Virus record (IMG/VR): IMGVR_UViG_3300030098_001936
Coordinates: 1 to 25,687 of that record
From: a virus
Lineage: Duplodnaviria; Caudoviricetes
Strand: one strand, 5' to 3'
Length of the DNA: 25,687 bases
Each line of letters begins with the position of its first letter. The first letter of the stretch is position 1. The notes beneath the pieces were generated by a model. The model was not told where the DNA came from. It worked only from the letters and a program-made list of their open reading frames with translations, and did no database searches. The position numbers and the translations under genes are program-made. Positions 6,685-25,687 of this stretch are shown in pieces.

Positions 6685-6922
6685 CCCTACTGATCAGATT
6701 ATGAGAGACAAGGCAGTTAATGCTTGCTCGAATCTGGCACAAGTGATGGACACTCAGGGTAATGACGGGTGGCTGTTTATTCAGGAAGAGGAAGAGAGCG
6801 AAACGCAGGGCTGGGCAATTATTGCTGCAAGAAGCCCTAAAGATTTGTTGTCTATAACTTTGAGTCTTCTGGCGATGGAAGACGATCTTCAAGATGAAGA
6901 ATGGCAAATAGGAGAAATGTGA
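6677..6922 (+). CDS. Hypothetical acidic protein (81 aa)
   Basis: ATG 6677 (MINPTDQ...) overlaps the terL end, preceded by gggag. It is the 3' part of track ORF 6554..6922. Confidence 0.6.
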   Translation: MINPTDQIMRDKAVNACSNLAQVMDTQGNDGWLFIQEEEESETQGWAIIAARSPKDLLSITLSLLAMEDDLQDEEWQIGEM

Positions 6923-6923
6923 C

Positions 6924-7028
6924 ATGCCAAGTGGTAAAGGGACGTATGGATCAAAGGTTGGCCGACCGCCAAAGAAGAAGTCTGCTCCTAAGAAAAAGAA
7001 AGCCGCAATGAGGGGCAAGAAAAAATAA
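6924..7028 (+). CDS. 34-aa lysine-rich peptide with GRP (AT-hook-like) core (not in ORF track)
   Basis: Hand translation MPSGKGTYGSKVGRPPKKKSAPKKKKAAMRGKKK*. SD aggag at 6910-6914; fills the gap with 1-nt spacers on both sides. Confidence 0.85.
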   Translation: MPSGKGTYGSKVGRPPKKKSAPKKKKAAMRGKKK

Positions 7029-7029
7029 C

Positions 7030-7287
7030 ATGGCTTATTCGATGCTAAAAACCGGCGGCAGACAGAAAGGTGTTTTGCCCGGAGTGCAGAAGAACATTCA
7101 GCAGGATGTCAAAGACAGAATGCAGAATATGCTTCCGATGCTTTCCGGTGGTTCACCGCTTGGGCTTCCATTGTTTGATGGAGAGGGTGGCCTTGTTTCG
7201 GATTTGCAGGGAGGGGGCTATTTGCCAATGAGCCAGATGTTCCCCTTCTACTCTCCTGAATACTCTATGAATCTTGGATATTCCTAA
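7030..7287 (+). CDS. Hypothetical protein (85 aa, Gly/Met/Pro-rich)
   Basis: Starts 1 nt after the previous stop; TAATG overlap with the portal gene. Confidence 0.65.
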   Translation: MAYSMLKTGGRQKGVLPGVQKNIQQDVKDRMQNMLPMLSGGSPLGLPLFDGEGGLVSDLQGGGYLPMSQMFPFYSPEYSMNLGYS

Positions 7288-9026: not shown

Positions 9027-9328
9027 TGCCAACGTATGTATTTAAAGACGCTGAAACAGGAGAAAAAATTGACCGCTATTTTCCTATCGCAGAGGCTCCT
9101 CGCTTCGGCGAAACCATCATGGTTGATGGCAGGGAATATGTGCGTCAGTTGAACTTCAACCTTGATTCAGCAGGCATTGCTAGGAAAACACATAAGTATC
9201 CTTATGTAAGTAAGGCGTTGCCTCGCAATCTTCGGGGGTGTGAGTGCAACGAAAAGGGGCAACCCATAATTAAATCACAGGCTCATGAACGCAACGTAGC
9301 GTCAGAGCATGACATGGCAAAAGATTAG
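9026..9328 (+). CDS. FmdB-like small protein (MPTY start, N-terminal Zn-ribbon cysteines absent)
   Basis: MPTYVFKDAETGEKID... N-terminus, coupled to the portal by TAATG. Confidence 0.6.
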   Translation: MPTYVFKDAETGEKIDRYFPIAEAPRFGETIMVDGREYVRQLNFNLDSAGIARKTHKYPYVSKALPRNLRGCECNEKGQPIIKSQAHERNVASEHDMAKD

Positions 9329-9362
9329 GGACCGTAAATACGAGAACCCCAAGGAGATAAAC

Positions 9363-10442
9363 ATGCCAGAAGAAACCCCCACAACTACAGACGTAACTTC
9401 CGCTGAAACAGTCATTCCGGTTAGTCAGGGTGTTACAATGGAAAACGATTCCGCGGACGATGCGGTCCTTGACAACATCATGGGCGTATCGAACCCACAG
9501 GATTCGGACAATCTTTCTTCGCATCCCGAAGATGAAACCATTGACCTTTCGCCTAATGAGGATGGACTCACGGGGGAAGATTCGTCTGCGCAGTCAGAGG
9601 CCGATGACACGGCTGATGATTCTTCAGAATCTACAGAGGAAAACAGCGACAACCCTGCTGAACTTGACTCTGAAGATTACGCAAAAGCCGTTGCCGCCCT
9701 CAAGCGTGACGGCGTACCACGTTCAGTCATTGACCAGATGGCCGATAAGAACCCCCAAGACATAATTGATTGGGGACTTAAGCGAGCCAAGGTGCAGGCT
9801 GACGTTGATGGATACGGCGCTAAAGTCAAAGAACTAGAAGCGAAACTTTCAGAATCAAGCGAGGCAACCAGCGAGGACGGGGAGTCGGCAGGTACAGATC
9901 AACTTGTCGGCCAACCCTCCGAAGTCGTTGAATCGCTAAACCGCTATGAGTCTGAGATTTCAGAAATCTTTGGCGATGAAGCAGCCAAGTCTGTCATGTC
10001 CCCTATTAAACAACTTGCCGATGAAATGAAGCAGGCGTTCATGCAGCAGCAGGAGGTTATTAGCCAACTGTATAGTGCGATGGAACGTCGCGGAATTGAT
10101 GAGGCTAGGGGACGTTTGGGAGAGCGGTTCTCCCGCTTGAGTGACAATGATGTATTCCAAACTGTCGTAGAAACAATGGAAAAACTTGCCAAGGTTGGTG
10201 AGTATGAAAACATTGACGATTTGATGTCGGATGCATATAGGCTCAAGTTCTCAGAAGTAGCGGAAAAGGAAGCACAGCAGTCACAGCAACGAGAGTTGCG
10301 TTCTGCTGGGCAGCCTACTGCTACCACTCAGACTCCCATGCCATCAATGGGCAAATCTATTCAAGATCGTGAAGACGATGCTTTGGATGCTTTGCTTAGT
10401 GGCAAGGGATTTGATGGTGCGTCCGCTGCATATCAAGGTTAA
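9363..10442 (+). CDS. Capsid scaffolding protein
   Basis: Preferred start ATG 9363 behind aaggag. Very acidic disordered N-half and helical C-half; directly precedes the capsid gene. Confidence 0.75.
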   Translation: MPEETPTTTDVTSAETVIPVSQGVTMENDSADDAVLDNIMGVSNPQDSDNLSSHPEDETIDLSPNEDGLTGEDSSAQSEADDTADDSSESTEENSDNPAELDSEDYAKAVAALKRDGVPRSVIDQMADKNPQDIIDWGLKRAKVQADVDGYGAKVKELEAKLSESSEATSEDGESAGTDQLVGQPSEVVESLNRYESEISEIFGDEAAKSVMSPIKQLADEMKQAFMQQQEVISQLYSAMERRGIDEARGRLGERFSRLSDNDVFQTVVETMEKLAKVGEYENIDDLMSDAYRLKFSEVAEKEAQQSQQRELRSAGQPTATTQTPMPSMGKSIQDREDDALDALLSGKGFDGASAAYQG

Positions 10443-10445
10443 TTC

Positions 10446-10461
10446 CGGGGCATTCGCCCCG
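10446..10461 (+). promoter_or_regulatory. Short hairpin immediately 5' of the capsid gene SD
   Basis: cggggc-attc-gccccg perfect 6-bp GC stem, followed by agaaggag SD and ATG 10478. Confidence 0.5.
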
Positions 10462-10477
10462 AGAAGGAGTATGACTT

Positions 10478-11635
10478 ATGGCAGGTACAGCCCTCGCCAA
10501 CTTCAACGACTTCATGAAAGTTACCGGCCCCCGGTATCTTTCGTCGGCTGAAGAGGTCATCAACGAAGCCGTGAATAACACCTATATCCTTGGCCGCTTT
10601 CTTAAGGGCAAGGGTATGGATGCTTCTATTCAGGGCGGGAAAACGATCAATGACTCTGTCATGTTTGACGAGGCATCGACGTATGACCACTACAAGCCGA
10701 ACGCCACGTTCTCATGGAGCAATCCACAGGTCATTACTGATCTGGAAATCAGTTGGCGTTTCTCCGTTGACCACATGTCGTGGACGGATCAGGAAGTCGA
10801 ACTTAACGTGTCCGAAGGACTTTCCCGTGATGCACAGAAGGTTGCCTACAAGCGACTGAAGCGTATCAAGGAAATGCGTCTCTGGACTTCTTTCTTGAAT
10901 GGTATGGAAGCCGACCTTTGGAAGGGCGCTTACCCCAATGGTTCCGAAATGGAAACCAGCACCGGCACTCTTCCCTACAGCATCCCGTCATTCATCTCAG
11001 AAAACACCAGCAACTACCATTCGTTTAACACGGGTGACGCTACTACGGTAATGGGAGTCGCTCCCGGCACTGAATCCAAGTGGCGCAATCAGGTGTCAAC
11101 GTATGACTACACTGACGCTGATGACTCAGACGGCGACCAAGACGGTCTGCTTGATGCGTTTGATGAAATGTTCCTCAAGGTAAAGTTTGTTCCTCCTTCA
11201 ACCAAGCAGGAATACTTTGAGAAGGACAGCCTGAATCGGCAGTTCATCTGTTGCTCCCGTGGCGGTATCAATCTCTACAAGAGAATGCTCCGTGACGCGA
11301 ATGACACGCTGGTAGGTAAACAAGACCCTGCTTACAACATGCCTCAGTACAGCGGTATCGATCTGCTGTACGTTGCCCATCTTGATGACGCAACCATCTA
11401 CGGCGACACGACTGCCGACGATGCTGAGACAGCAGCAGGTGACAATGCTGGCTATCGTTACTGGTGGCTCAACGGCAACTACATGACCCCCGTGTATCAC
11501 GCACGGCGGTACATGGAAAAGCACGATCCCATGCGGCATCCGAATCAGCCGTTCACGACTGTGCAGCCTGTTGACTGTTGGTGGAACCTCTTCTGTAACA
11601 GCCGTCAGCGGCAGGGAATCATTTGCCCGCAGTAG
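10478..11635 (+). CDS. Major capsid protein (HK97 fold inferred)
   Basis: 385 aa, strong SD, follows the scaffold gene. Motifs GGKTI, YSGIDLLY, YWWLNGNY and CNSRQRQGII resemble podovirus coat proteins. Confidence 0.88.
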   Translation: MAGTALANFNDFMKVTGPRYLSSAEEVINEAVNNTYILGRFLKGKGMDASIQGGKTINDSVMFDEASTYDHYKPNATFSWSNPQVITDLEISWRFSVDHMSWTDQEVELNVSEGLSRDAQKVAYKRLKRIKEMRLWTSFLNGMEADLWKGAYPNGSEMETSTGTLPYSIPSFISENTSNYHSFNTGDATTVMGVAPGTESKWRNQVSTYDYTDADDSDGDQDGLLDAFDEMFLKVKFVPPSTKQEYFEKDSLNRQFICCSRGGINLYKRMLRDANDTLVGKQDPAYNMPQYSGIDLLYVAHLDDATIYGDTTADDAETAAGDNAGYRYWWLNGNYMTPVYHARRYMEKHDPMRHPNQPFTTVQPVDCWWNLFCNSRQRQGIICPQ

Positions 11636-11673
11636 TGCGAGCAATGATCCCTTGACATAGAAAGGTAAATACC

Positions 11674-12153
11674 ATGTCAAATGGACCCTCAGTAAACGCC
11701 CCCTTCGGGCTTTCCCTCCCGGTGCATGACATCCGGGTAACAAATCGTACTGGCAGTACGGTCGCTCGCGGCCGTCTGATGCAGTTGGATTTTGTCAGTC
11801 TTAGTTCAGAAGCAACTTCCAACACGGAAGGCATCGAATTGTCTGGACTCGCTAATGGCATTGCTGTTACAGCAGATGGCAAGGCGGGAGAGCAAATCGT
11901 TGTCGTTGCATTAAGTGACATCGCTGACGATGCAAGCGGTATGTGCCGTGTGTATGGCCGAGTAAAGGCTATGGGCAGTGCAACCGTGGATATTAGTTCT
12001 GCTGGTGCTAGTCTTTGTGTCACCGCATCTGAACTTGGCGGTCATGCTTCTGATGGCAAGGGCGTATTTGCCATTGCTCTGGAAGATACGGCAAATGACA
12101 CGCTTAGTGAAGTTCTTTGGAACGGTTTCGGCTGGGCCAACGCTAGTGCGTAA
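11674..12153 (+). CDS. Capsid decoration/cement-like protein
   Basis: 159-aa Ala/Gly/Ser-rich ORF right after the capsid gene. VVALSDIADDASGMCRVYG...FAIALED pattern. Confidence 0.65.
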   Translation: MSNGPSVNAPFGLSLPVHDIRVTNRTGSTVARGRLMQLDFVSLSSEATSNTEGIELSGLANGIAVTADGKAGEQIVVVALSDIADDASGMCRVYGRVKAMGSATVDISSAGASLCVTASELGGHASDGKGVFAIALEDTANDTLSEVLWNGFGWANASA

Positions 12154-12164
12154 GTAAAACCTAA

Positions 12165-12195
12165 GACTCCTCTCCCCTACCGGGGAGGGGAAGTC
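12165..12195 (+). terminator. Stem-loop after the capsid module (probable partial terminator or mRNA stabiliser)
   Basis: gact-cctctcccc-tacc-ggggagggg-a-agtc, followed by pyrimidine-rich attcctctttctt. Confidence 0.6.
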
Positions 12196-12218
12196 ATTCC
12201 TCTTTCTTGGAGATAACG

Positions 12219-12734
12219 ATGGGAACTATTAACTTTTACACAAAGTTTGATTACACGGATGCAGCGGGCAACCTGTACTCAGACGGCAGCACTTCTGTTG
12301 CCCACACAATAACTGTTGCTTCTGATGAAATCTTTGACCGGACGTATGCGATTGGCCCTACGGCTACCTTGACCACACTTCTGAACGATGATCTTATTTC
12401 TGACTTTGATTTTCTGTGGATCGAATCAGATCAGCAGGCTGAGATTCAATTGGTTTGCAACGAGTTGGGTGTCCATAACACTGATGCTGCTGATGATAGT
12501 GATGACACGGCTTTGGCAAACGGTTGGGTTGTAAAACTTGAGGCTGGCATTCCGTTCTGTTTGCACAACGATGACAGTAGAAACCGTGGAGATGTCGGTG
12601 GAAACATTGGCACTAACTACCTTAGTGAACAAAACTCTTGGGAATCTTCGTGGAACGTAGATGTTATTGACCGGATTGAGTATTACCACACGACTGGTTC
12701 CGCAGCAAAAGTTCGTGTCATTGCAATTACTTAA
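12219..12734 (+). CDS. Hypothetical virion protein, paralog A
   Basis: ATG 12219 behind ggag. Shares SDFDFLWIESD, EIQL.CNE, VKL.AGIPF.L.NDDSRN and IDRIE with the next ORF. Confidence 0.8.
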   Translation: MGTINFYTKFDYTDAAGNLYSDGSTSVAHTITVASDEIFDRTYAIGPTATLTTLLNDDLISDFDFLWIESDQQAEIQLVCNELGVHNTDAADDSDDTALANGWVVKLEAGIPFCLHNDDSRNRGDVGGNIGTNYLSEQNSWESSWNVDVIDRIEYYHTTGSAAKVRVIAIT

Positions 12735-12745
12735 TAGGATTTAAG

Positions 12746-13243
12746 ATGGCAACACTAAACCTGACCACACACTTTACAGTTTCGCTTGCAGACAGTGATG
12801 ATTCTCGAACAATCACTGGTGGAAGCACAACTGCTTCTGATTCAATCACAATTACCCATTACTACGATCAAAGGTTTTTGATTGCGAACACAACTTTAGT
12901 TGAGTTGTGGAGTGATAGCACTGCAACGTCGGACTTTGATTTCTTGTGGATTGAATCTGACGCTGCTGTCGAGATTCAATTGCTTTGTAACGAAGGTGGC
13001 GACCTTTCTAATAACAACATTGAAAATGGCTTTTGCGTCAAACTCACTGCTGGCATCCCATTCATCTTGTCAAACGACGATTCCCGAAACATGGGAAACA
13101 TGAATGGCACTTTTAATGAAAGTAATTACCAGTCAGAGATTGACACTTGGGAAACCAACTGGGTGGCTGACACCATTGACCGCATCGAGTGCTACAACGG
13201 AAGTGGCGGCGATGCTAATGTTCGTATCTTTGCGGCGACATAA
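12746..13243 (+). CDS. Hypothetical virion protein, paralog B
   Basis: Tandem paralog of 12219..12734, with agga SD. Confidence 0.8.
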   Translation: MATLNLTTHFTVSLADSDDSRTITGGSTTASDSITITHYYDQRFLIANTTLVELWSDSTATSDFDFLWIESDAAVEIQLLCNEGGDLSNNNIENGFCVKLTAGIPFILSNDDSRNMGNMNGTFNESNYQSEIDTWETNWVADTIDRIECYNGSGGDANVRIFAAT

Positions 13244-13245
13244 TC

Positions 13246-13953
13246 ATGGCTATCACACTGGCTACACTTAAAAAGCATGTACAGCACGCCCTTGGCGGAA
13301 GTGTTGCAGAACAACTGGATGAAACTGGCATAGTCAACGAGGCTGGCCGTCAGTTGTTTATGTCTCCTTGGAAGTTCAGGGAGCGTCCTCCAGTCGATGT
13401 TTCGTTTGTTGCTAATCAGAATCATGCGGAACTTCCCTCAGACTTCGGGGAGTTTATTGCAGCAAACATGAAGGATGGCCTTGTAAAGTCCTTCACGTTT
13501 ACTTCCTTCCATGATCTTGTGCAACGAAGATCAACCAGCACTGGTGTCACCAATCATTACTGGCTTGCTGTTTCCCATCCATTCCCCCAGAGTGATGGCG
13601 ACCCCCTGCCTGCTCCGCGACTAGAGTTGTACCCAACGCCTACAAGTGCTGACCAGATGACGATGATCTATCGGTCAAAGTGGGTAGACCTTCTTGCTGA
13701 CGGCGACTACGCCCCGATCCCTGACTACGCAGAGTCAGTGCTAATTGCTTTGGTCAGGGCGTTTGCTCTTGGCTATGAGGAAGAAGGCATGGAGTTGCGT
13801 GTCGCAGAGGTTGAGAACGGGACTCTTTATCAAAGACTTCGAGAAAAGGACGGCTTGATTCAACCGGACTACGGGCCTCTTCGTAATGGGGCATTGAGTC
13901 AGGCGCGTCCAAGTTACCAATTGCCGTGGGACTCCACGGCTGATCCTTCATAA
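13246..13953 (+). CDS. Head-tail adaptor protein (T7 gp11 / P22 gp4 functional analogue)
   Basis: 235 aa. ITLATLKKHVQ...VNEAGRQL...ELPSDF...RLELYPTP...IPDYAESVLI pattern and position fit podovirus adaptors. Confidence 0.7.
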   Translation: MAITLATLKKHVQHALGGSVAEQLDETGIVNEAGRQLFMSPWKFRERPPVDVSFVANQNHAELPSDFGEFIAANMKDGLVKSFTFTSFHDLVQRRSTSTGVTNHYWLAVSHPFPQSDGDPLPAPRLELYPTPTSADQMTMIYRSKWVDLLADGDYAPIPDYAESVLIALVRAFALGYEEEGMELRVAEVENGTLYQRLREKDGLIQPDYGPLRNGALSQARPSYQLPWDSTADPS

Positions 13954-13997
13954 GCGGCGAGTGGGTCCGCACCTACCCACAGGCATAGGAGAAAATC

Positions 13998-14432
13998 ATG
14001 CCAAGTCCTCACAGAACAAGAGAAATTGCAAGACAGGAAGTCGGTCACTATCGAGTCGTGGCAACTTCTGCCAATGTAACCCTGACAGATGACGATGGGG
14101 GTACATACTTTACGGTCACTCAAGCGTCTGCTTACGACATTACTTTGCCCGCTATTTCGGCTTCACGCGCAGGCTGGTGGGCAGACTTTACGCTTGTAAC
14201 CGCTGGGTCCAACGATGTTGACGTTGTTGCCGCTGCTGCCGATGCGGACAAAATCTACATATTGGAAAACTCAGACACGGCGACAAACAATGCTTCTGAC
14301 CCGGCTGACAAAGTTACGTTTGATGCGAGCAACGCCGGAATCGGTGACCACTTGCACATCTGGCACGACGGCAATAACTGGTACGCTCGACAGTCATCTG
14401 TTGCTGATGCTGGTGCTGAACATTCTGGATAA
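13998..14432 (+). CDS. Small beta-rich virion appendage-like protein
   Basis: aggag SD. TLTDDDGG...ITLPA...GDHLHIWHDGNNWY is a pattern common in fibre/appendage domains. Confidence 0.65.
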   Translation: MPSPHRTREIARQEVGHYRVVATSANVTLTDDDGGTYFTVTQASAYDITLPAISASRAGWWADFTLVTAGSNDVDVVAAAADADKIYILENSDTATNNASDPADKVTFDASNAGIGDHLHIWHDGNNWYARQSSVADAGAEHSG

Positions 14433-14450
14433 TAAATAAACGCTCACCAC

Positions 14451-14478
14451 CTTCTCTCCCCTTAACGGGGGAGAGGAG
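14451..14478 (+). promoter_or_regulatory. Stem-loop whose 3' arm contains the SD of the downstream gene
   Basis: cttctctcccct-taac-gggggagaggag 12-bp stem (two G-U pairs). gaggag lies 8 nt before ATG 14487. Confidence 0.65.
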
Positions 14479-14486
14479 ATTTCACT

Positions 14487-14873
14487 ATGCCTGAATCGTA
14501 CAAAACAACCAACTTCGCAACGACGTACAAGACGATCACATTCTTGTCTTCTGCGGCAAAGTCCACAACGGCACTTGGTACTAGCAAGACCAAGGCTAGG
14601 TCAAACATCCGCACGTTGTTTTCTGGGGCGGTTATTTACAACAAGTCAACCTCGACGCAGCCTTTGACTGTCACAATCAAGGTGACTAACGGGACTGTGT
14701 CGTATGAGTTGGACAGCGTGACAATACTTCAGGGCGACTCTGCTGCTTGGACAGAAGAGGAGTACGGGGTCGTACTTGACACAGATCAGTACATCCAAAT
14801 TGAGGTGACAGAGACAATTGCAAACGGCGATGTCTTGAACATCTTTATCCGGTCAAAGGATATCTACCAGTAA
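14487..14873 (+). CDS. Hypothetical Thr-rich virion protein
   Basis: 128-aa ORF with SD; TAATG overlap with the next gene. Confidence 0.7.
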   Translation: MPESYKTTNFATTYKTITFLSSAAKSTTALGTSKTKARSNIRTLFSGAVIYNKSTSTQPLTVTIKVTNGTVSYELDSVTILQGDSAAWTEEEYGVVLDTDQYIQIEVTETIANGDVLNIFIRSKDIYQ

Positions 14874-17800
14874 TGCCACCAGCCAAGAAACAAAAAGTCG
14901 AGTTGCAGTTTCCGATTGAAGGCCAAGTAGAAGGCACAGGCCACGCAAATCAGAAACCAAATACAACTTCTGATTGTAAGAACGTCCGTCCGTTTGACGT
15001 TGAGGAAGATCGAGCAAGGGGTGGTCGGCGTGATGGTGTAAGCAAAGTTACTTCAACTCCTGTGACTGGAGAAAAGATTGATCACATGGAGTTTGTACAA
15101 AGGGCGAATGAAAGCACCGTCTATGAACCCGGCCAATTGATGGAGTTCCCTGAAGGAAACCCAAACGCGGGCAAACTTGCTAATTTTACTTTTCCATCAA
15201 TACCAGTAGGCCAGCAAATAACTCAATCTGGCGCGAACTTTTTGTATTTTGGAAGGGCTCTTCAATTTTTAAATGGCCCTACTGATAATGTTGATTCAAG
15301 TTATCCGGCATCTTCTTCTTCGGATTTGGCTAATGTCGGTCCATTTCATGGGGCAATTGCTTACAACGAGCAAAGGTCCGCCAAGCCTATTAACATGTTT
15401 GACTACTCAAACCTTGTGAAATACAAGGATGCCGACAATGCTGAGTACGTTGACATAAACTCTAAAAACTTTGGGTATGCTGGTGCGCCATATCAGTACG
15501 GCGATGGAGGAGTTTACGAAACCAGTTCGCAGCACAGATGGAGGCCGTGGTCAGAGTTTGTTGATGGACGTATCGATTCACATATTTTAATTAATCCGCT
15601 AAATCGTAATTGGGTTGTTTCTTCTGGTTTTTTTGTTTCCCCTAACACTGGTGGTTTTTTAGATTCAAATAACGGCGGCAACGATGACAAAGATGATTAC
15701 ATCTTTGCACCATGGAGTAGTACAAAAAGAACTTCATATGTAACTAGTTTGGATTTTAGATGTCCGTATGGTATGCCAGCAAAGTTTTCGTACAATGGTG
15801 GTGACCCAACAGTTACTGTCAAGTTTGTTGCAACTGCTGATGATGTAGATGACGATAGTTGTGTCTATGACCCTTATTACAATGAACTTATGGGGTCTAG
15901 TACAAGTACAATGCCGCACACTTGGCTTGTTAATTCTCCTAACCAAGAAGGTCATGATGACTACAGTCACTACATAACTTGGGGCATTGCATTGCGTTGT
16001 CGCATTAGCAGCGATGGAACAGATTCAGAAGCAAATTACACCCACGGATACATGGAGTGGCATGATTATTATGGTTCGTTTAATGATGGTTGCAATGCTC
16101 AAGACAACGCAAAAACGCCAATAGTTATTAGATTTAAAATGGAGATCCGAACTGGAAAAGTTGACATGTTTATTGGTGGTTGGGCTGACCACCGACATAG
16201 TTCAGTTGAAGGCACTGTCTTTGCGATGCAGCAAGCAAATGCTCATTTGGGTTACTCATATCTTAACCAAAATGGAAATCAAGAAGGTAAACTTGGAACT
16301 GTTATTGCAAGTCGGGAAGATGACTTGGATGAAAACGGAGACAGGAAACGCCATAAATTAGTTGTTACTCAGCAAGACAAATCTCTTTCAGTAAGTTTTG
16401 ATGGAAATGTTTTGTGGTCTGCGGAAGACATTGAAGATACGGAAAAGTATGATTGGCATACTTATCCGCATATTAGACTTGGTGGTGTATATAGCCACGG
16501 ACATCCCGTTTCACATCACAGGTCAAAACTTATTTACGGTCATACTCTTCAGGTGTCACCGTCAAGTTCAAGTACACAAAATGAGTATGTTCAAAAGCAA
16601 GCATTAAAGTATTTTGGAACATTTGATCATGTAAACCAGCCAGACAGTTCTGGGGACACTGCTGAATCGGCAAACGCAAACAATTCTCTTCATGGGAGTC
16701 GACACAAATGGAGTCTTGGTCTTAAGGTTTACGACTGGGACTGGAGGTCGATTGACCCAGTCATTGTTGGAAGAAGACATGTTACTGCGGTGTCTGGCGG
16801 AAAAGTACACAGTACGACTCCAGATGATTTAAGCAACTTTACTATTAGGTCTACTTCCCAAGACTTATCTACAAACGTAAACAGAATTGACGGCACATCG
16901 TTCTTTGAGAATATTTACTTTGTGGACGGCAGTAACTATAAGTATTTTGACTCATCTCAAATGAAGGTTCTCGACTGGAACACTCTTGACGAAAACGGTG
17001 AAATCAACACCAATTCTACGCTTCCGGGTGGTAACGGCGACACTGGCTTGTACGGCAGTGGCACATCAGATGAAAACCCAAGATGCACAATAATCAAGTC
17101 TTGGCTTGGTCGCTTGGTGATGGCCGGAAAGTCTGACGAACCGCAAAACTGGTTTATGTCTGCTGTGGGTGACGCGACTGATTTTGACCCAGACAGTTCC
17201 GCTCCGGGTGCATCCGTGTGGGGGTCTAAGTCAGAAAACATTGGAGAGATTTCTGACCCCATCATTGCGATTGCCCCGTCGATTGACAACCGGCTAATCA
17301 TTAGCACATCGAATTACATCTATGCAATGACTGGAGATCCATTGTGGGATGGTACTCAACTTGTAAGCATTAGCACGGAGGTTGGATTCATTGGCCCAGA
17401 CGCATGGTGCTACGGGCCTAATAGAGTCTTGTATTTCATGGGTCCGAATGGACTCTATGCTCTTGCTCCCAACGAGTTCAACATTACGCAGACTAACCGC
17501 TTGTCTTCTGGCAAACTTGATAAGACATTCAAAGACCTTGATTTGTCTTCGTCGGCATGCAAACTGGTGTATGACAACGTCAACCATGGTGTCCACATAT
17601 TCTTGACTCCGGCGAACCAAAGCACAGACAAGCGTAGTCATTATTTCTACGACTCAAGAACTAATTCATTTTGGCCCATGGAGTACCCCGGAGTCATTGG
17701 GCCGACGTATGTAATGGACTTCCAGAGTCCAAACCCTGAAGCAAACAAGATTCTTCTTGGCGGCTTTGATGGTCACATTCGTTCATTCTCGTCTTCTGCT

Positions 17801-18142
17801 CAGGACGATGATGGGACAATTATTGACTCACACGTTTGGATCGGGCCGATCTCATTGTCAAGTACGCAGGAGGTCAAGTTGACTGAGATGCTTGCCATTC
17901 TTGACGAGCAGACTCCCGGCTTGAGTTACGAAGTGTATGCGGCAGACACGGTCGAGCAGGCCAAGAGTGGAACGCCGATCTTCAGTGGCCGCTGGAACGG
18001 TGGCCGAAACAATTATGTAAGGACTCGCGCTCGCGGGGCCGCTATCTTTATCAAGTTGCTGGATGGGACTAAGCAAGACCCGTGGGCAATGGAACGCCTT
18101 GCAGCCACTCTTGCAGTTGCTGGTCGCGCAAGAATCCGATAG
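14873..18142 (+). CDS. Tail nozzle / DNA-stabilisation protein (P22 gp10 / T7 gp12-like) with large central insertion
   Basis: N-terminal DCKNVRPFD...RGGRRDG and C-terminal beta-propeller-like LGRLVMAG...WFMSAVGD, LYFMGPNGLY, FYDSRTNSFW. Sits between adaptor and ejection genes. Confidence 0.7.
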   Translation: MPPAKKQKVELQFPIEGQVEGTGHANQKPNTTSDCKNVRPFDVEEDRARGGRRDGVSKVTSTPVTGEKIDHMEFVQRANESTVYEPGQLMEFPEGNPNAGKLANFTFPSIPVGQQITQSGANFLYFGRALQFLNGPTDNVDSSYPASSSSDLANVGPFHGAIAYNEQRSAKPINMFDYSNLVKYKDADNAEYVDINSKNFGYAGAPYQYGDGGVYETSSQHRWRPWSEFVDGRIDSHILINPLNRNWVVSSGFFVSPNTGGFLDSNNGGNDDKDDYIFAPWSSTKRTSYVTSLDFRCPYGMPAKFSYNGGDPTVTVKFVATADDVDDDSCVYDPYYNELMGSSTSTMPHTWLVNSPNQEGHDDYSHYITWGIALRCRISSDGTDSEANYTHGYMEWHDYYGSFNDGCNAQDNAKTPIVIRFKMEIRTGKVDMFIGGWADHRHSSVEGTVFAMQQANAHLGYSYLNQNGNQEGKLGTVIASREDDLDENGDRKRHKLVVTQQDKSLSVSFDGNVLWSAEDIEDTEKYDWHTYPHIRLGGVYSHGHPVSHHRSKLIYGHTLQVSPSSSSTQNEYVQKQALKYFGTFDHVNQPDSSGDTAESANANNSLHGSRHKWSLGLKVYDWDWRSIDPVIVGRRHVTAVSGGKVHSTTPDDLSNFTIRSTSQDLSTNVNRIDGTSFFENIYFVDGSNYKYFDSSQMKVLDWNTLDENGEINTNSTLPGGNGDTGLYGSGTSDENPRCTIIKSWLGRLVMAGKSDEPQNWFMSAVGDATDFDPDSSAPGASVWGSKSENIGEISDPIIAIAPSIDNRLIISTSNYIYAMTGDPLWDGTQLVSISTEVGFIGPDAWCYGPNRVLYFMGPNGLYALAPNEFNITQTNRLSSGKLDKTFKDLDLSSSACKLVYDNVNHGVHIFLTPANQSTDKRSHYFYDSRTNSFWPMEYPGVIGPTYVMDFQSPNPEANKILLGGFDGHIRSFSSSAQDDDGTIIDSHVWIGPISLSSTQEVKLTEMLAILDEQTPGLSYEVYAADTVEQAKSGTPIFSGRWNGGRNNYVRTRARGAAIFIKLLDGTKQDPWAMERLAATLAVAGRARIR

Positions 18143-18151
18143 GAGTAAACA

Positions 18152-18877
18152 ATGGGATTTTTGGATGCCATTTTTGGAAGTAAAGAAAAGAAGGGCAACC
18201 CTTACTTGGGTTACTCGCAATTTTTGCCATCGGCAACACAGGCATATTTTACTGATATTCAAAATCAAATGTCTAATGCGCAAAAAGCGTATGCGTTTGA
18301 CCGAGAAAGAAGTATTGGCCTACTAAATCAAATCTTTGCCCACAAAGAATTGGGGCTTCAAGAGATGATTCGCTTGGCACAGGATACTCCTGTTGTCGAT
18401 CCTGAAATCTACAAGACTGGCAAAAAACAAATTGAAACAGGCATTCAAGACATTATGTCTGGTGCTGAAGAACGAGAACGCGCGCGAGGTTTTTACTCTA
18501 CTACTCTTCCCACTAGGCGTGGGGCAGACCTTTCGTCTCGACGAGTTCAAGAGTTTGAAACTCAGTTTGCTCAATTTAAGGGTGGACTAGATGCTCAGAG
18601 GCGTAACCAGATTCTTCAACTGCAAGGCCAACAGGCAATGCTTGGGGCTGACAGGGCTTCAGCGTTCTTGAACTTCTACGAAAAAGAACCTGCTTACACG
18701 TTTGAACCTTCGGGGTATTTGCAGTTTATGCAGGCATTTGGAAAGGCTCAACCTTGGAAACAAATGGGCCAGCCAATTGAATATGCCAGAGAAGGCGTAC
18801 TTGGTGGACTTTTGGGAACTGCCACGGGATTTTTGCAGGGTGCTACAGGCGCTATGACTACTGGCGGTGCTGCGTAA
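18152..18877 (+). CDS. Putative internal virion/DNA-ejection protein
   Basis: aggag SD. MGFLDAIFGSK start, Gln-rich helical body, Gly/Ala hydrophobic C-terminus; follows the nozzle gene. Confidence 0.6.
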   Translation: MGFLDAIFGSKEKKGNPYLGYSQFLPSATQAYFTDIQNQMSNAQKAYAFDRERSIGLLNQIFAHKELGLQEMIRLAQDTPVVDPEIYKTGKKQIETGIQDIMSGAEERERARGFYSTTLPTRRGADLSSRRVQEFETQFAQFKGGLDAQRRNQILQLQGQQAMLGADRASAFLNFYEKEPAYTFEPSGYLQFMQAFGKAQPWKQMGQPIEYAREGVLGGLLGTATGFLQGATGAMTTGGAA

Positions 18878-18909
18878 AGCATTTTGTTTGTTAAATAAAA
18901 GGGTTAAAT

Positions 18910-19362
18910 ATGGGACGCAGGATTGACATGAGTTTGTTTGCAGCCGCTTCGCAGGGCACAGCCCCTGTTTTGGATGTTTTGACGGAAGGGCGGAATGCCG
19001 CCAATAAAACTGTACAAAACAACATTGCGGCTGATCAAGAGTATTACTCCATGAGAAACGCAAACATTTCAGGTTTAATGAAAGGCGCATCTCCTCTGGT
19101 TTCTCAACTAGGCGGACAATTTGGTACATCAATTAGCGGCATCTTTGGCGGTTCTGCTCCGGCTCAAACAATGAGTTGGGCAGGCAGCCCACAAATGACC
19201 CAAGCCACGTTTGGCTCGCCTACTTATCACGGTGCAATGAGTCAACTTCAGCCTTACATCCAAGGCGCGCAGGCACTTCAACAACAACAAATGGCGGTCA
19301 ACATGGCTCCGCCTGCAAATATGGGTGGGCCTCTTAATTTTGGCTCATTTATAAGGCAATAA
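18910..19362 (+). CDS. Putative internal virion protein (Gln/Gly/Ala/Met-rich)
   Basis: 150-aa low-complexity ORF in the ejection-gene cluster. Confidence 0.55.
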   Translation: MGRRIDMSLFAAASQGTAPVLDVLTEGRNAANKTVQNNIAADQEYYSMRNANISGLMKGASPLVSQLGGQFGTSISGIFGGSAPAQTMSWAGSPQMTQATFGSPTYHGAMSQLQPYIQGAQALQQQQMAVNMAPPANMGGPLNFGSFIRQ

Positions 19363-19363
19363 A

Positions 19364-21304
19364 ATGGCTACTAATAAAAAGCAACCAATTGGAAATCCTC
19401 CCTTTCAAGAGGACTCGCGTACTTATTTCGACCCCAATGAGTTTGAAGACGTTATCCAGCCGAAGGAAGGCAGCACGCCAGACACAGTTGAACGTGACAA
19501 GGCTACTCTTGAAGATGGCATTGCGTCCGCTACTGCTGCTGCTGTTTCCGCCGAACAAAATGGTGACAATGATGCTGCCGCTGCTGCACGCAGGGCTTTG
19601 GTAAATCTGCGAAGTCAGCGTGCAAAAAAGGGTGCGGAGTCTGTAGGGTTTACTCAGGCTCTTGACTTGGGAGATCAAAAAGTAGACGCACGCACTGTGT
19701 GGAAACCTCAGACTCCGGGCTTTCATACAGAAATTAGAGTTGCTCCTGACGGAAGCATGCACTTTGTAGATTCAGAAACTGGTAAATGGATTGGGATTGC
19801 CAGCAAAGATAGCGTTAACATTGTTACAGGCATGGACAATCAGATGGTTGGCAACCGTCTAAAGTCTGAGAAGTTCGACCTTGAATTAAAAGCATACCGT
19901 CAAGTGAACGAGCAGCGTGACGCTGTGACGGCTGCAAGCCGTGCTGTTAACGGGGCAATTATTGACAACCATATTAATGCGTTGTCTGAATACCCTGAGC
20001 CTATTCAAAACATTCTTATGCAGGCTTACTCAAATCTTGAGGAACTTTCCGAGCATCTGCACCCAGAGCAAATGAAGATTCTTTTGGCTGAAACGCATCG
20101 GGCTACTCTTGGTGGAGGCTCAATTTTTGACGTTGAAAATATCCTTGGTAATGGAATCAATGTCGCTAATCAAAACAAAGCAGCACTCCGAAGTTCTAGT
20201 GAGATTGCATACGGTCAATCGATGAGTTCAATTAACGAGGAACTGTCAGAACTTCAGTCCAGCATTGATGCCGTTGACCAGCAGATACTGGATGCTCACA
20301 TAAGAGCAGAGTCAGAAATTAAAACAAGGGAGACAAAGTATAAATACGCTGAAACTCCCAGTGTTGTTGATGCTTCGGGTGGTATGTCAGAAAAGGACGA
20401 AATAATGGCTGAGGCTGACCGCGTGGGTGGCAGTGGGGGAGGCCAACGTCCAAGGACAAGTGTGTCTACTGTTGAGAAAACTTATTCATCTACTCAAGCC
20501 ACTATAGATGTTCTGGAGACAAGAAGAAAAAAACTTGAGGATGAAAAAACAAAACTTGAAATGACTCAGAAAGCACTGTATCGCCGGAACAGGCACAGGT
20601 CAGCAAATGACAATGCTGGTCCCGATGGAATGTTTGCGAATAATCCTGACATGGATTCGTGGGCAGGAAAGGAAATGGGCAAGCATCTTGTTTCCCCCGG
20701 CGGTCACATGAGTGCCATCATTGATCTGGTTGCAATGAACAACCAATTTGAAGATGGCAGTGTTGATTCTGATCTTGTCGCTGCGATGGCAAAGCCAGAG
20801 TTTATGGCGGCGTTTATTGATAAGTGTCAAAAGTATGCACGGGCGCACGGATGGTCTGGTGTTGGAAGCGTGGACTTGTGGGGTGCTGCAATTATTCAGA
20901 ATGTCAGCACCGCAAACAGTGCGAATGACATTAACCGGGCGATCAATTCGATGGCTGAAGTAAAGGCAGCCGAGATGCTTAGTGCTTACAGTCAGGCTGC
21001 TGGCCGACCCACGCCTGCTGCTGGGCCTGCTCCTGCTCCTGCTGCTGCTGCTTCACCTCCCCCCGGCCCAGCAACTGCCGGGGAAACTGTTGACTTTGAT
21101 CCCAGCAACACTGACTGGTTGAATGATCCGGCAATAGTAGATTCAATGATTAAAGAACTTGGCACAATTCCTGACACCGGAATAAGTGGGTCAGATTATC
21201 AAGCACGAATTGCTGCATGGATGATTAATCACAACGTCCCTCGCAATCAAGCAGATCAAATCAACACTACAATTGCAATGATGTCTGCAAATCCTGATTC
21301 ATAA
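19364..21304 (+). CDS. Putative internal virion/ejection protein with coiled coils and Pro/Ala linker
   Basis: 646 aa with helical coiled-coil segments and a PTPAAGPAPAPAAAASPPPGPA linker before a small C-terminal domain. Confidence 0.6.
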   Translation: MATNKKQPIGNPPFQEDSRTYFDPNEFEDVIQPKEGSTPDTVERDKATLEDGIASATAAAVSAEQNGDNDAAAAARRALVNLRSQRAKKGAESVGFTQALDLGDQKVDARTVWKPQTPGFHTEIRVAPDGSMHFVDSETGKWIGIASKDSVNIVTGMDNQMVGNRLKSEKFDLELKAYRQVNEQRDAVTAASRAVNGAIIDNHINALSEYPEPIQNILMQAYSNLEELSEHLHPEQMKILLAETHRATLGGGSIFDVENILGNGINVANQNKAALRSSSEIAYGQSMSSINEELSELQSSIDAVDQQILDAHIRAESEIKTRETKYKYAETPSVVDASGGMSEKDEIMAEADRVGGSGGGQRPRTSVSTVEKTYSSTQATIDVLETRRKKLEDEKTKLEMTQKALYRRNRHRSANDNAGPDGMFANNPDMDSWAGKEMGKHLVSPGGHMSAIIDLVAMNNQFEDGSVDSDLVAAMAKPEFMAAFIDKCQKYARAHGWSGVGSVDLWGAAIIQNVSTANSANDINRAINSMAEVKAAEMLSAYSQAAGRPTPAAGPAPAPAAAASPPPGPATAGETVDFDPSNTDWLNDPAIVDSMIKELGTIPDTGISGSDYQARIAAWMINHNVPRNQADQINTTIAMMSANPDS

Positions 21305-21317
21305 CAAGTGAACACAA

Positions 21318-24300
21318 ATGCCTGAAACGCCAACGCCTCAAAACCAACAGGGTTTTCAGTCTCTTGAGTTGGGACTGCTTGATTACCACAGGAAAAACCT
21401 AAGAGACGGCACTTACTTTGCAGATGAAGATGGCTATGTCACAACTGTTCGCACTATGGGCGTGACGGTTGATGACAAGTATTACATGATTCCTAGTTAT
21501 GTCGGCGGGAAAATACTGGAACCCGAAGAGGCTGTTAAAAATGCTGAGTCTGTTGGCTGGGAAAACTTCCCGTCGTACTCAACTATGGAAGAGTTTGAAG
21601 ATGCCGACAGGCGATTGCATACGCAAATCGAAGATGACTTTGAAGACTGGCAAAAGTCTCAAGGAGAGAAGGCGTGGTCCCCTGAAGTACGCGCTGCCGC
21701 TGGTGAACTAAGAGAGCAAAAAAGAAGGGAACTTGTACAACAACTTGAAGAAGGTAGAGGAAAACGTGTTCCGGGTCAGCCCGGATACGGCGCTCCGTTT
21801 GTAGTCCGTGAACAAGAAACAGAGCGTTTGCAAGAATTGCAAGAACAACTTGACTCACTTGATTTGTACGAAGAAGAACAATACGACAGGCTTTCTCTTG
21901 AAAGAGAAAAGGTTGACTTTGAAGTTCAGGCTCAATATGACAGAATTAAAATGGGTCAAGAGCCGTACACGAAAGAAGAACTGGAAGGATTGTTTGAGGT
22001 GTACGTCAGGGACAGGGACGTACTAAAACTAAACATCGTTCGTGAAAACATGGGCATGCCTGCGCTTTCTCCTGAAGCGTTCAAACCTGCTGGCTTTGGC
22101 GAGTCATTTGCCGAAGAGATTTACTGGCCCATTATGGGAACAATTGATCAGGCAGATTACATTATTGACCTGTATGAACGGGCTGATCGTATTGAAAGAG
22201 GCGAGGGTCTGCCGCAAGATGAGAAGCGTCTACTTGAGCATTGGGCAACGCTTAAAGAACTTGAGATTAGGGGCCGCACTTGGATGGGTGAAGCGGGTGC
22301 TATTTCTGGCATGTCGCTTCCCTTCATGATGGAAATTGTGGCAACGAGAGGGGTGACAGCGGGAGCCAAAAAAGCCTTGACTAAGGCAGGCTTTAAGATG
22401 GGAGACAAGGTCATTGCCAGAGCGCTTGGCAAAGTCATCAACAAAGCAACTAAGGGCGGTGCTGAGAATCTTGTCAAGCACCTTGCAAAGAAAAGGTCTG
22501 GCGCTCTGGCTCTTAAGGGGCTGGCAATTTCTGGTGACGTAGCGTCAGCCGAAGCCGTTCGTTCGTCTGTGCTTGGGTTTGGTACAGGCAAGATTTATGC
22601 CGACGCTATCCGTGAAGTGTTGATGGTTGACGTTGACATGGATCAAATGGGCGAGATCCAATTGTACGTTGATGCTCCTACTACTATTGGTGGCGAGGCT
22701 ATTCTTAGGTCGTGGGCCAAGAACTACGTTGAGTACGTTTCAGAAAGAACTGGTGCAATACTTACCAAAGGTGTTGTACCCGGTGTCAAGAAAGGCCTTA
22801 GCAAAATTACGCCACGCCAGATTGATGAGGCGGTTAAGGGTCTTAAGACTGCTGTTGTTACTAGGTGGATGAAGAACAACCCAAGGGCGAAACTGTCTGA
22901 GTTTGGTAAGTTTCTTGCCCAGAAGGGTGGGTATCACGGCGTACTTGGCGAGGACTTTGAAGAGTGGGTCGGTTCAGGTATGCACTACGGCATCGACGCG
23001 GCCACCATGGAAGATGCCGAGTTGTACATCCCAAGTCTTGACGAGTGGCTTCAGCGTCTCGTTGGCTTTGGTGTTCCTATGGGCGGGCAAGTAGCAATTG
23101 GTGCTGCTGTAACACCGTTGGCACGCAGGTCTGCTTCCGGTGCAATCGATGCAGCAAGAACTGAGGGTCGGCTTAGGGGTGTACGCAGGCAGCAGGAGGG
23201 GGCGCTTAGGCAGGAAGAGCAGCCTCCAATTATCTCAGAGTTGCAAGAAGAAGTTGAGGGTATCGGAGGGGTAGTAGAGGGTGAGGCTGTTACTGTTGCC
23301 AGAATCAGAAACAAAGATGGGGTGATTGTCGGTGAGGTTGCGGCTAGTTCTGAGAAGGCTGAAGAGGTAGAAGAACACATCAAGACGCGGCTGGCTCCTG
23401 AAGAGTACGAAGAGTTGGAAGTGTCCATGATTCCGTTGGCTGAGATTCAGGCGGAGTTGGAGGAGCAGGCCGAAACTGTAGAAACAGAGGCTGCCGCACT
23501 TGCACCGCGTGGTGACATGGCGCAGACGGAGGCTGCTGAGGCTGCCGAGGCTTTAGACGCAGAGATTAAGAATGAACTGGATGCTGTTGCAGAAACCGCT
23601 AGTAATAAGTTTGATGATGCTCACACCATCACGCCGACCCCGGTAGAAGAACAAGATCGTGGTGTCCAACTTATCTCACAGGCAATGGGCAGGGCAGGGA
23701 TCCGCGTTGTTCCGGTTGACATTACTGCGGAAAGCGGCAGCCCTAAGATTGGTGGCGCTCAGTTGCCGTCCAGACCAGACGTTGTGTTTGTTCAGGACAC
23801 CAGCAAGATTACTGACCCGAAAGAAAAACGCAAGGCGTTCGTCCGTAACTTCCTTGGCATTCTTGCTCATGAGGCTACTCACACTCTGGAGTCCATGAAC
23901 CCGGCGTTGTACAACTACCTGATTCTCCGGGGCAGGAAAGAAACTGAGCGGGGTCTTAGAAGTTACGCTGGTACTGAGGCTGGTGAGGTTCTTGATTCTA
24001 ACTACATGTCAGAACTTTCAGAAGGTCTGGCTACTGCTATCCAGAAACTGATTGCTTCTGGTCGTATATCTTTGGACCCCACCGAAAAGAATATGTGGAA
24101 CCAGTTGAAGGACTGGCTTAATGGTTGGGTGAACCGCACTGGCCTGCGTGGCTCGTTTGCTATGGAGACTCAGAAGTTTGTTGACAGGCTTCTTGCAGGC
24201 GAGAACATTGCAGAGATAGAACTGCCCGGCCAGAGAAAAGAACTTGAGCGTGCGCGTGCCCGTGGCTTGGCACCGAGGGCTGGGGCTGCATTGCCTGAAG

Positions 24301-25687
24301 TTACGGAGGAGGACATTGCCGCCGAGCCTGACTTGTCTGTGAGGTTTGCGCCTGCTGAGGGGCAGCCCCCCCGTCGCATTAAAATTGGGCGTACGGCACC
24401 GAGCATTGAAATCCCAGAAGATTTTTCTATTGAACTTGAAGCCGATGAAATCACAGAGGGCCAAAAGAACTTCATGTCCGAGTTCTTTGATGCCACCTTT
24501 GCTGCTCCTTCCATGCTTTCGGTACAAGGGAGAGTGTTCTTAGACCCTAGCGTAAGCGGCGAAGCGTTGGAAAGGTTTGCGACAGAGCAGACACTTCCTC
24601 AAGACTGGGTCCATATTGTTGCAAAGGCTCATGTGTATACACGCGGCAATAATTCTATCTATCTTGGGTCTATTGCTACTCAGGTTCGTGGGCAAGGGTA
24701 CGGGACTTATGCTCTGAAGATCCTCACCGATCTTGCAGACAAGCACGGAGTTTCTATCGAAGGTTCTGTCGATAAGTTTGGGAAAGAGGGACTATCCCAA
24801 ACCAAACTTCGAGCGTGGTACAGGCGGCATGGTTTTGTTGTTGGCAAAACAGACACAATGGTCTACAAGCCTAAGCCTGAGGCCGAGGCCGCACCCCGCT
24901 TCGCACCCGCACCTGCTGTCAACACGCCTGAGTTCCGCCGCTGGTTCAAGGACTCGAAGGTGGTGGATGAACAGGGCAACCCGTTGGTTGTGTACCACGG
25001 AACAAAGAAAGAGTTTTCTGAGTTCAAGACACGGTTTCCTGACATTCCAATTATTTTCTTTACAACCGATCCAAAGTTTGCTTCTGATTGGATGGAAGGT
25101 ACGGGGGGAGTTCGCCAGCCGTCAGATGAGGTTCTTGCTAAATCTAAAGAAATGCGAGCGTATGAAAATGCCTTGTATGAAGAGTTAGGAATCAGAAATA
25201 TTGACACTAGCACGGACGCGGGACTGCAAGAGTTCAACCAGATGCAGCAAGACGTGCGCAATCGTATGACCGAACGGTACGGCTTTGATTCGGCAATCGA
25301 GTATGAGAGTTTGGCTGATACTCGAATCATGCCAGTCTACTTGTCAGTGCAAAACATGTTTGAGCCTCAAGAACATTGGGATCAAATAAAGTTTCCTGAA
25401 CCTACCCCCAATATAATGCGCGCCGCTAAACGCGGCGCGTGGCCGGTGTATGAAACAAAAGAAGTGATAGAACAAATTAGGGAGTTGGGTTATGACGGCA
25501 TTCGGTTGTCTGAATCTACCCTTGAAGGTTCGCCCCTTGATACTATAGCAGTCTTCGACCCCACCCAAGTCAAGTCAGCCACCGGCAACGTAGGCACGTT
25601 CGATCCCGCTCAAGCAGACATCCGCTTCGCACCCGCACCTGCGACAAGGGAAGTCACATGGTCCGATAGCGAGCAGCAACAGTTTGA
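21318..25687 (+). CDS. Giant polyvalent virion protein (3'-truncated): HExxH metallopeptidase, GNAT and ADP-ribosyltransferase-like domains
   Basis: Hand translation from ATG 21318 has no stop to the window end (1456 full codons). HEATH at 23868-23882, RGQGYG at 24687-24704, YHGT at 24993-25004, then LGYDGI and AVFDPTQVKSATGNVGTFD. Confidence 0.92.
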   Translation, partial: MPETPTPQNQQGFQSLELGLLDYHRKNLRDGTYFADEDGYVTTVRTMGVTVDDKYYMIPSYVGGKILEPEEAVKNAESVGWENFPSYSTMEEFEDADRRLHTQIEDDFEDWQKSQGEKAWSPEVRAAAGELREQKRRELVQQLEEGRGKRVPGQPGYGAPFVVREQETERLQELQEQLDSLDLYEEEQYDRLSLEREKVDFEVQAQYDRIKMGQEPYTKEELEGLFEVYVRDRDVLKLNIVRENMGMPALSPEAFKPAGFGESFAEEIYWPIMGTIDQADYIIDLYERADRIERGEGLPQDEKRLLEHWATLKELEIRGRTWMGEAGAISGMSLPFMMEIVATRGVTAGAKKALTKAGFKMGDKVIARALGKVINKATKGGAENLVKHLAKKRSGALALKGLAISGDVASAEAVRSSVLGFGTGKIYADAIREVLMVDVDMDQMGEIQLYVDAPTTIGGEAILRSWAKNYVEYVSERTGAILTKGVVPGVKKGLSKITPRQIDEAVKGLKTAVVTRWMKNNPRAKLSEFGKFLAQKGGYHGVLGEDFEEWVGSGMHYGIDAATMEDAELYIPSLDEWLQRLVGFGVPMGGQVAIGAAVTPLARRSASGAIDAARTEGRLRGVRRQQEGALRQEEQPPIISELQEEVEGIGGVVEGEAVTVARIRNKDGVIVGEVAASSEKAEEVEEHIKTRLAPEEYEELEVSMIPLAEIQAELEEQAETVETEAAALAPRGDMAQTEAAEAAEALDAEIKNELDAVAETASNKFDDAHTITPTPVEEQDRGVQLISQAMGRAGIRVVPVDITAESGSPKIGGAQLPSRPDVVFVQDTSKITDPKEKRKAFVRNFLGILAHEATHTLESMNPALYNYLILRGRKETERGLRSYAGTEAGEVLDSNYMSELSEGLATAIQKLIASGRISLDPTEKNMWNQLKDWLNGWVNRTGLRGSFAMETQKFVDRLLAGENIAEIELPGQRKELERARARGLAPRAGAALPEVTEEDIAAEPDLSVRFAPAEGQPPRRIKIGRTAPSIEIPEDFSIELEADEITEGQKNFMSEFFDATFAAPSMLSVQGRVFLDPSVSGEALERFATEQTLPQDWVHIVAKAHVYTRGNNSIYLGSIATQVRGQGYGTYALKILTDLADKHGVSIEGSVDKFGKEGLSQTKLRAWYRRHGFVVGKTDTMVYKPKPEAEAAPRFAPAPAVNTPEFRRWFKDSKVVDEQGNPLVVYHGTKKEFSEFKTRFPDIPIIFFTTDPKFASDWMEGTGGVRQPSDEVLAKSKEMRAYENALYEELGIRNIDTSTDAGLQEFNQMQQDVRNRMTERYGFDSAIEYESLADTRIMPVYLSVQNMFEPQEHWDQIKFPEPTPNIMRAAKRGAWPVYETKEVIEQIRELGYDGIRLSESTLEGSPLDTIAVFDPTQVKSATGNVGTFDPAQADIRFAPAPATREVTWSDSEQQQF
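24896..24916 (+). repeat. 21-bp direct repeat, copy 1 (ccgcttcgcacccgcacctgc)
   Basis: Identical to 25622-25642; encodes the RFAPAPA linker. Confidence 0.95.
25622..25642 (+). repeat. 21-bp direct repeat, copy 2
   Basis: Identical to 24896-24916; offset 726 bp = 242 codons, in frame. Confidence 0.95.

Follow-up and report, generated by a model that had tools for sequence, protein, structure and literature searches.

Polyvalent proteins, in which disparate enzymatic domains are joined in one giant polypeptide, have been described by Iyer et al. (PMC5512222), who also proposed autoproteolytic domain release with an explicit analogy to viral polyproteins. Both the family and the self-processing idea are thus known already, the latter in print since 2017, which was missed in the original prediction for the DNA described here, namely, that repeated RFAPA motifs are recognition sites of an upstream HEATH metallopeptidase. 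The virion RNA polymerase of phage N4 (vRNAP) also has an HExxH domain, and its structure was solved from the full-length recombinant protein (PMC13434306), which warns, by analogy, that such domains may not need to cut their carrier. Among small zincins of known specificity, ImmA cuts between F95 and M96 and IrrE between L106 and R107 (PMC6868357), and CapP cuts between F82 and R83 (10.1101/2022.04.27.489752), all with Phe or Leu before the cut.

The window, a DNA stretch of 25,687 nucleotides, belongs to an uncultured, podovirus-like phage record and represents ~62% of the genome. Matches to terminase, portal, major head, adaptor, and tail genes were identified upstream of a giant ORF, on the same (+) strand. 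The features are as follows.

Within 4392 to 21304, + strand: small and large terminase, portal, major capsid, SU10-type adaptor, and tail genes, assigned by family matches.
Within 4392 to 21304, + strand: probable scaffold and probable small ejection genes, labeled from their position.
21318 to 25687, + strand: first 1456 aa of a giant polyvalent protein (probable ejection protein), with no stop codon and cut by the contig end.
21318 to 23609, + strand: conserved N-terminal backbone (aa 1 to 764), with a hydrophobic stretch at aa 581 to 599 and no motif copies.
23610 to 24284, + strand: zincin-like metallopeptidase domain (aa 765 to 989), from predicted structure and weak fold matches.
23868 to 23882, + strand: HEATH zinc-binding motif (aa 851 to 855), its H, E, and H invariant in 20 of 20 rows.
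24021 to 24023, + strand: Glu902, probable third zinc ligand, at least 90% conserved and Glu in 20 of 20 local-alignment rows.
24342 to 24356, + strand: RFAPA copy 1 (aa 1009), 158 aa past HExxH, with divergent codons.
24357 to 24896, + strand: GNAT-like cassette (aa 1014 to 1193), from a Pfam match below the cut-off and from relatives.
24897 to 24917, + strand: RFAPA(PA) copy 2 (aa 1194), with a 21-nt direct repeat at 24896 to 24916.
24912 to 25622, + strand: ART-PolyVal cassette (aa 1199 to 1435), with a Pfam match above the cut-off.
25623 to 25643, + strand: RFAPA(PA) copy 3 (aa 1436), with the 21-nt direct repeat at 25622 to 25642.
25638 to 25687, + strand: start of the next cassette (TREVTWSD...), from comparison with the relative P0002.

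Some other regions of the window are also distinct. Positions 1 to 1000 have a G+C content of 61% versus 41 to 54% in the remaining window and carry an HTH gene (345 to 893). A 168-aa ORF (1540 to 2046) with a lipobox-like LAGC at its start and several hydrophobic stretches had no Pfam or PHROG match and possibly encodes a lysis or membrane protein. Two adjoining ORFs of 175 and 165 aa (12207 to 13243), both containing DFDFLWIESD, resemble paralogues and showed no family matches.

The giant gene sits among virion genes, and its product combines ART-PolyVal, GNAT-like (below the cut-off), and HExxH domains in one polypeptide, as in the polyvalent proteins of Iyer et al. (PMC5512222). The gene position suggests that the protein could be packaged and injected with the DNA, and this position together with the N4 vRNAP analogy (PMC13434306) points to a possible ejection role for the N-terminal backbone. 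A search for related loci with this single window protein confirmed none of six candidates. P0002 (2982 aa) is a near-identical allele, with 99.9% identity over aa 1 to 1228 of the window protein, and likely gives its full layout. It ends in a conserved domain of ~1100 aa (aa 1890 to 2982) that has two mildly hydrophobic stretches and no Pfam match; in other matches, this position may be filled by LPD38 or LPD39. In P0002, the TREVTWSD cassette comes after a later motif copy (aa 1747), so that cassettes of P0002 are missing from the window exactly at the copy 3 joint.

RFAPA starts at 24342, 24897, and 25623, the positions given in the original prediction, and at no other position in the six frames of the window. 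It is the sole 5-mer with three copies, its expected count is 0.0016, and any 5-mer reached three copies in only 4 of 2,000 shuffles. Residues 1 to 1008 are free of RFAPA, in line with the predicted absence from the first ~1,000 residues, and no copy lies upstream of HEATH (aa 851). All five codons of copy 1 differ from those of copies 2 and 3, as had also been claimed, whereas copies 2 and 3 are identical over 21 bases. RFAT at aa 1086 was left uncounted because it is not conserved in P0024 (RFET). The proposed order of peptidase, GNAT, and ART domains, each followed by a copy, held for ART-PolyVal between copies 2 and 3 (83.5 bits; cut-off, 31.2), but the GNAT match between copies 1 and 2 is below the cut-off (E value, 8.5e-4; 20.1 bits versus 27) and partial, covering only residues 89 to 161 of 180. 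The GNAT-like cassette is missing from P0004, P0122, and L001 and runs from motif to motif in P0024. The ART cassette of the window is 98% identical to that of P0124 and ~60% identical to the cassettes of two lineages with other motif versions (FAA and LSP; see below).

The metallopeptidase placed upstream of the motifs by the original prediction seems intact, as judged from its conserved residues and predicted structure. None of the 20 aligned relatives, which are 22 to 100% identical, deviates at H851, E852, or H855. The model (pLDDT, 71.9; pTM, 0.71) comprises helix 17 to 28, strands 32 to 40, 47 to 52, and 55 to 62, and helices 70 to 96 and 132 to 149, with an HEXXH helix and a Glu on a later helix, as in zincins. 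This matches the MPTase core described by Iyer et al. (PMC5512222), in which a helix and three strands precede the HExxH helix and the Glu helix. The best fold match was PprI, a weak one (Z score, 5.1; rmsd, 4.4; 92 residues aligned), and many of the top rows were zincins; the weakness of these matches counts against cleavage by the zincin. Foldseek returned nothing below an E value of 0.001, Pfam peptidase models gave no match at E values up to 1, the best hit of a PDB sequence search was unrelated (E value, 0.2), and no cultured phage matched the domain. The ESM Atlas yielded unnamed clusters, in one of which 18% of the members carry LPD23, and this is taken as a lead only. In the model, the copy 1 linker has a pLDDT of <50 and shows no sign of docking, which counts against cleavage by the zincin.

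In 14 full-length close relatives, we found 58 copies of the protein's own motif type in the 17,719 aa that separate HExxH from the C-terminal part (the last 850 aa, or 600 aa for L001) and none in the 11,119 aa upstream or in the 11,650 aa of the C terminus, the motif labels and the C-terminal border having been picked after inspection of the data. All copies thus fall inside the cassette region. The first copy lies 150 to 165 aa past HExxH in 11 of the 14 proteins, and the last one is followed by 1064 to 1191 aa in 12. In P0011 and P0019, the first copy occurs only 379 and 492 aa past HExxH, implying a joint without a clear motif, which counts against cleavage by the zincin. The claim that every boundary carries the motif holds for the three joints of the window; in the relatives, most joints carry it, but some do not. 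When the motifs were masked, the alignments had 129 distinct ends, 82 of which lay no more than 15 aa from a motif, against an expectation of 19, and five decoy runs placed 5 to 16 of 107 to 125 ends near decoys, although the relatives in this count are not independent. Among the 54 motif-to-motif segments, 41 belong to nine families, whose members match across 60% or more of each length, and 13 are singletons, 5 of which have a length of only 7 to 23 aa; these short ones also count against the zincin. The motif sits in Pro/Ala-rich linkers and brackets interchangeable cassettes between the zincin and the ~1100-aa C-terminal domain, a repeated consensus at domain joints such as characterizes self-processed polyproteins. 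Several of the nine families have no Pfam match, so the motif delimits unknown phage effectors.

A leader of ~40 aa and a domain of ~300 aa, with the motif between them, occur together in all five full-length carriers: P0002 (aa 1395 to 1435 and 1441 to 1746; DNA in L008), P0004, P0013, P0024, and P0123. Neither has a Pfam family, and the leader might serve as an inhibitor or propeptide that can be removed.

Three versions of the motif were identified in the clade: xFAP, [QR]FAA, and x[LFM]SP. ART cassettes that are 79 to 81% identical end in [QR]FAA in P0003 and P0008 and in RLSP in P0013, and the change at their ends is limited to the motif. Similarly, a site with homologous flanks reads KFAPS, RFAPS, RFAPA, QFAPS, RLSPT, or QFAAR, depending on the host protein, and the site between the leader and the ~300-aa domain is xFAP, RLSP, or (in fragment P0128) QFAA. 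By these sequence comparisons, the motif goes with the host protein and not with the cassette, and crossing over at a shared repeat explains neither conversion case (the ART ends or the leader/domain site). The original prediction of selection on the peptide is supported by these host-specific versions at homologous sites, although it missed that RFAPA is the local version of a family-wide slot. On the zincin tree of the clade, the three motif classes need four changes, versus a minimum of two and 8.0 when shuffled, counts that indicate clustering only; the excess over the minimum counts against the zincin as the reader.

The position and host specificity of the motif, the intact catalytic residues, and the homogenization of the DNA under the motif are established. 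With moderate confidence, we favor the motif as a candidate cut site of the built-in zincin, probably between Phe and Ala, that doubles as a DNA crossover point. The ejection protein would begin with a conserved N-terminal part and end with a conserved C-terminal domain, the zincin and then a variable series of effector cassettes lying between them, and x-F-A-P would be the recognition site of the protein's own zincin. We infer that the zincin might cut each copy after packaging or after injection, most likely after Phe, and that the cuts could release the GNAT, ART, and further cassettes as individual enzymes, off both ends of the backbone. A cassette acquired from another lineage would then have to gain the site version of its host. 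With a copy at every joint, the site could also provide, in its DNA, short homology for gain and loss of cassettes within a lineage. Counted against cleavage by the zincin are the observation that ArdC and TraC1 are transferred whole (Iyer et al., PMC5512222) and a peptidoglycan role proposed by the phi24B authors for such a domain (10.64898/2026.04.10.717836).

The slot was also read in a wider set of 120 listed of 848 matches, biased to ART carriers, at a fixed offset from 347 ART ends in 117 more distant proteins; all counts here refer to the matches listed. After the ART ends, I occurred 290 times, R 202 times, F/Y/L 212 times, and S/A 227 times, and the slot is mostly R-F/Y-S. At equal ART similarity (core-identity bins, 0.1 to 0.7), slot identity was 0.55 to 0.68 within and 0.14 to 0.43 between proteins. 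A protein's own slot recurred off ART ends 0.49 times, versus 0.059 for foreign slots, and an exact extra copy was present in 56 and absent from 61 of the 117 proteins, the absences counting against the zincin. In 108 of these listed proteins, slot similarity followed both the zincin, with a beta of 0.243, and the C-terminal domain, with a beta of 0.247, but neither the N terminus nor ART (ART beta, -0.02); when the C-terminal domain was held similar, it followed zincin similarity (0.66 versus 0.40). In such sequence comparisons, slot similarity tracks the C-terminal domain as strongly as the zincin and does not tell the two apart, and kin share both, which counts against the zincin as the reader.

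This tracking would also fit an uncut docking or threading tag for the C-terminal domain, the zincin fold, or an ejection partner, keeping the cassettes packed or unfolded for tail passage. N4 vRNAP offers a precedent, as it resembles beads on a string and its HExxH-bearing C-terminal domain binds RNA polymerase and was not seen cut (PMC13434306), and all of the positional and selection evidence fits a tag equally. However, a site of three to four residues with a large hydrophobic and then a small residue in Pro/Ala-rich linkers resembles a protease site, the catalytic Glu never varies, and the I-x-E slots of P0014, P0047, and P0051 are like the sites of Glu-specific phage head proteases (PMC5694885). 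We regard an uncut tag as unlikely.

The motif could also be cut by another protease, of the host or encoded elsewhere in the phage, with the zincin having a different target, which we consider quite unlikely. Among the matches listed, 84 of 107 proteins with HExxH/HExxxH have an F/Y/L slot versus 1 of 10 without, and this sole protein has HEVGIH by eye; by cluster, the counts are 22 of 32 versus 0 of 8, where the HExxxH pattern was included once the data had been inspected and several of the 8 clusters may be kin. F/Y/L slots are thus nearly confined to zinc-motif proteins, which supports the predicted link to the peptidase and argues against a separate protease. Conversely, 23 of the 107 listed zinc-motif proteins have another slot type, some of them of the head-protease type, which favors another protease and counts against the zincin. 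Listed proteins without the zinc motif have T-A-A/S or K-S slots, and the K-S slot resembles HK97-type sites. The post-ART slot is of the K-S or T-A-A/S type in P0027, P0029, P0043, P0116, and P0118 and in P0033, P0035, P0041, P0055, and P0057, and an HPRD motif is repeated in P0014, P0027, and P0096. The three listed I-x-E proteins have a zinc motif. Together, the I-x-E, K-S, and T-A-A/S slots suggest that other proteases may read the same position. The window covers only ~62% of the genome, and the protease search in the records covered one family, PF04586, which was found in none of five records (the window and four relatives) and is absent from both near-complete relatives; no PHROG protease was found among the 22 window proteins. 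Neither mark of prohead-type sites was seen: RFAPA contains no Glu, and RFAP is absent from all genes within 4392 to 21304, including the capsid, portal, and scaffold ORFs.

The DNA under the motif is homogenized as well, a point absent from the original prediction. In five DNA records, 13 of 22 F-A-P copies are encoded by one and the same codon triple, versus an expected 4.6%. Within a lineage, recombination or duplication therefore runs through the motif, while silent variants persist. That the motif is mainly a crossover scar, a repeat spread by recombination that encodes a tolerated linker, would agree with these shared codons, with the 21-nt identity of copies 2 and 3, and with cassette gains and losses that end at the motif. 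Yet the remaining nine copies use eight different synonymous triples, and codons vary in the FAA lineage. Cassettes moved between lineages carry different motifs, which cannot have been the shared homology, and even a site with homologous flanks was converted, so the scar is already weakened by the conversion cases and seems improbable. The window (24990 to 25620) and P0002 (aa 1229 to 1389) carry differing ART variants in otherwise identical alleles. Their divergence begins 33 aa inside ART; thus, crossovers are not confined to the motif. A 19-base scan of viral contigs gave four loci: two lie on the L001 contig, and the other two are unrelated, chance similarities that fall in no long ORF.

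That the motif is a structural tail of ART, carried along when the domain is copied, might account for conservation that continues from the ART C-terminal signature at the 347 ART ends among the matches listed, but this extremely improbable reading is largely refuted by ART-less proteins, as the motif occurs without an ART match in P0004, P0024, P0045, P0123, and P0126, follows non-ART cassettes too, and varies without a link to ART similarity in the matches listed.

Cleavage by the built-in zincin thus remains our preferred reading, and we tentatively raise the possibility of a family-wide, lineage-specific cutting code, in which the cassette-end slot would be rewritten for the protease of the host protein, the same codons serving as the DNA exchange joint. 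The slot would be x-F/Y/L-small for built-in zincins and I-x-E, K-S, or T-A-A elsewhere. If true, such a code would allow domain borders that are now hidden to be read in thousands of giant proteins, and it would supply orthogonal pairs of protease and site. The FAP, FAA, and LSP lineages make reciprocal-swap testing possible, and even if uncut, the motif marks cassette borders. Three cultured phages, Pseudoalteromonas phage Y7 (L017, 126 to 14153), Pseudomonas phage F116 (L019, 8411 to 13360), and Dfl-JY45 (L021, 7536 to 14699), also encode giant proteins that combine a zinc motif with slots of the FSR/YSQ type, which makes them usable test systems. The slots are KFSR at 3193, RYSQ at 3686, and KFSR at 3695 in Y7 and QYSF at 38 and LFSR at 682 in p60 of F116.

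Among known systems, T4, phiKZ, and SPN3US prohead processing shares a short repeated motif, theirs being A-X-E and its kin in head and ejection proteins, but it depends on a separate Glu-specific protease that also cuts capsid and portal proteins, whereas the motif of the window occurs only at the joints of one protein (PMC5694885). IrrE/PprI, ImmA, and CapP are small HEXXH zincins of mobile elements and defense systems with cleavage after Phe or Leu, but each makes a single cut in a separate repressor (PMC6868357; 10.1101/2022.04.27.489752); PprI was the best, though weak, fold match of the window zincin. N4 vRNAP (gp50) is likewise a giant ejected protein with an N-terminal membrane part, linkers, an HExxH domain, and a helical C-terminal part of ~110 kDa, but it has one fixed payload, while the window protein has variable cassettes after the zincin and a motif at each joint (PMC13434306). 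As in polymorphic toxins, effector cassettes are exchanged by recombination at conserved sequence; unlike in those toxins, several tandem cassettes lie in one protein between two fixed ends (PMC5512222). The polyvalent proteins of Iyer et al. are also giant and multienzymatic, with ART-PolyVal, GNAT-like, and HExxH domains and a place in the virion gene block (PMC5512222); the window zincin has no Pfam peptidase match at E values up to 1. The main text of that paper names no recognition motif ("linker" has no matches, and the one "cleavage site" is in a reference title), and word matching in open-licence PMC and bioRxiv papers found none that describes a recognition motif at the joints. The present analysis adds that the motif is converted on cassettes shared among three lineages, as well as counts at the DNA level and a prediction of the bond. 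The 2017 proposal, in its main text, named neither substrate nor site (PMC5512222), and the host-specific motif supplies exact residues and the bond predicted to be cut.
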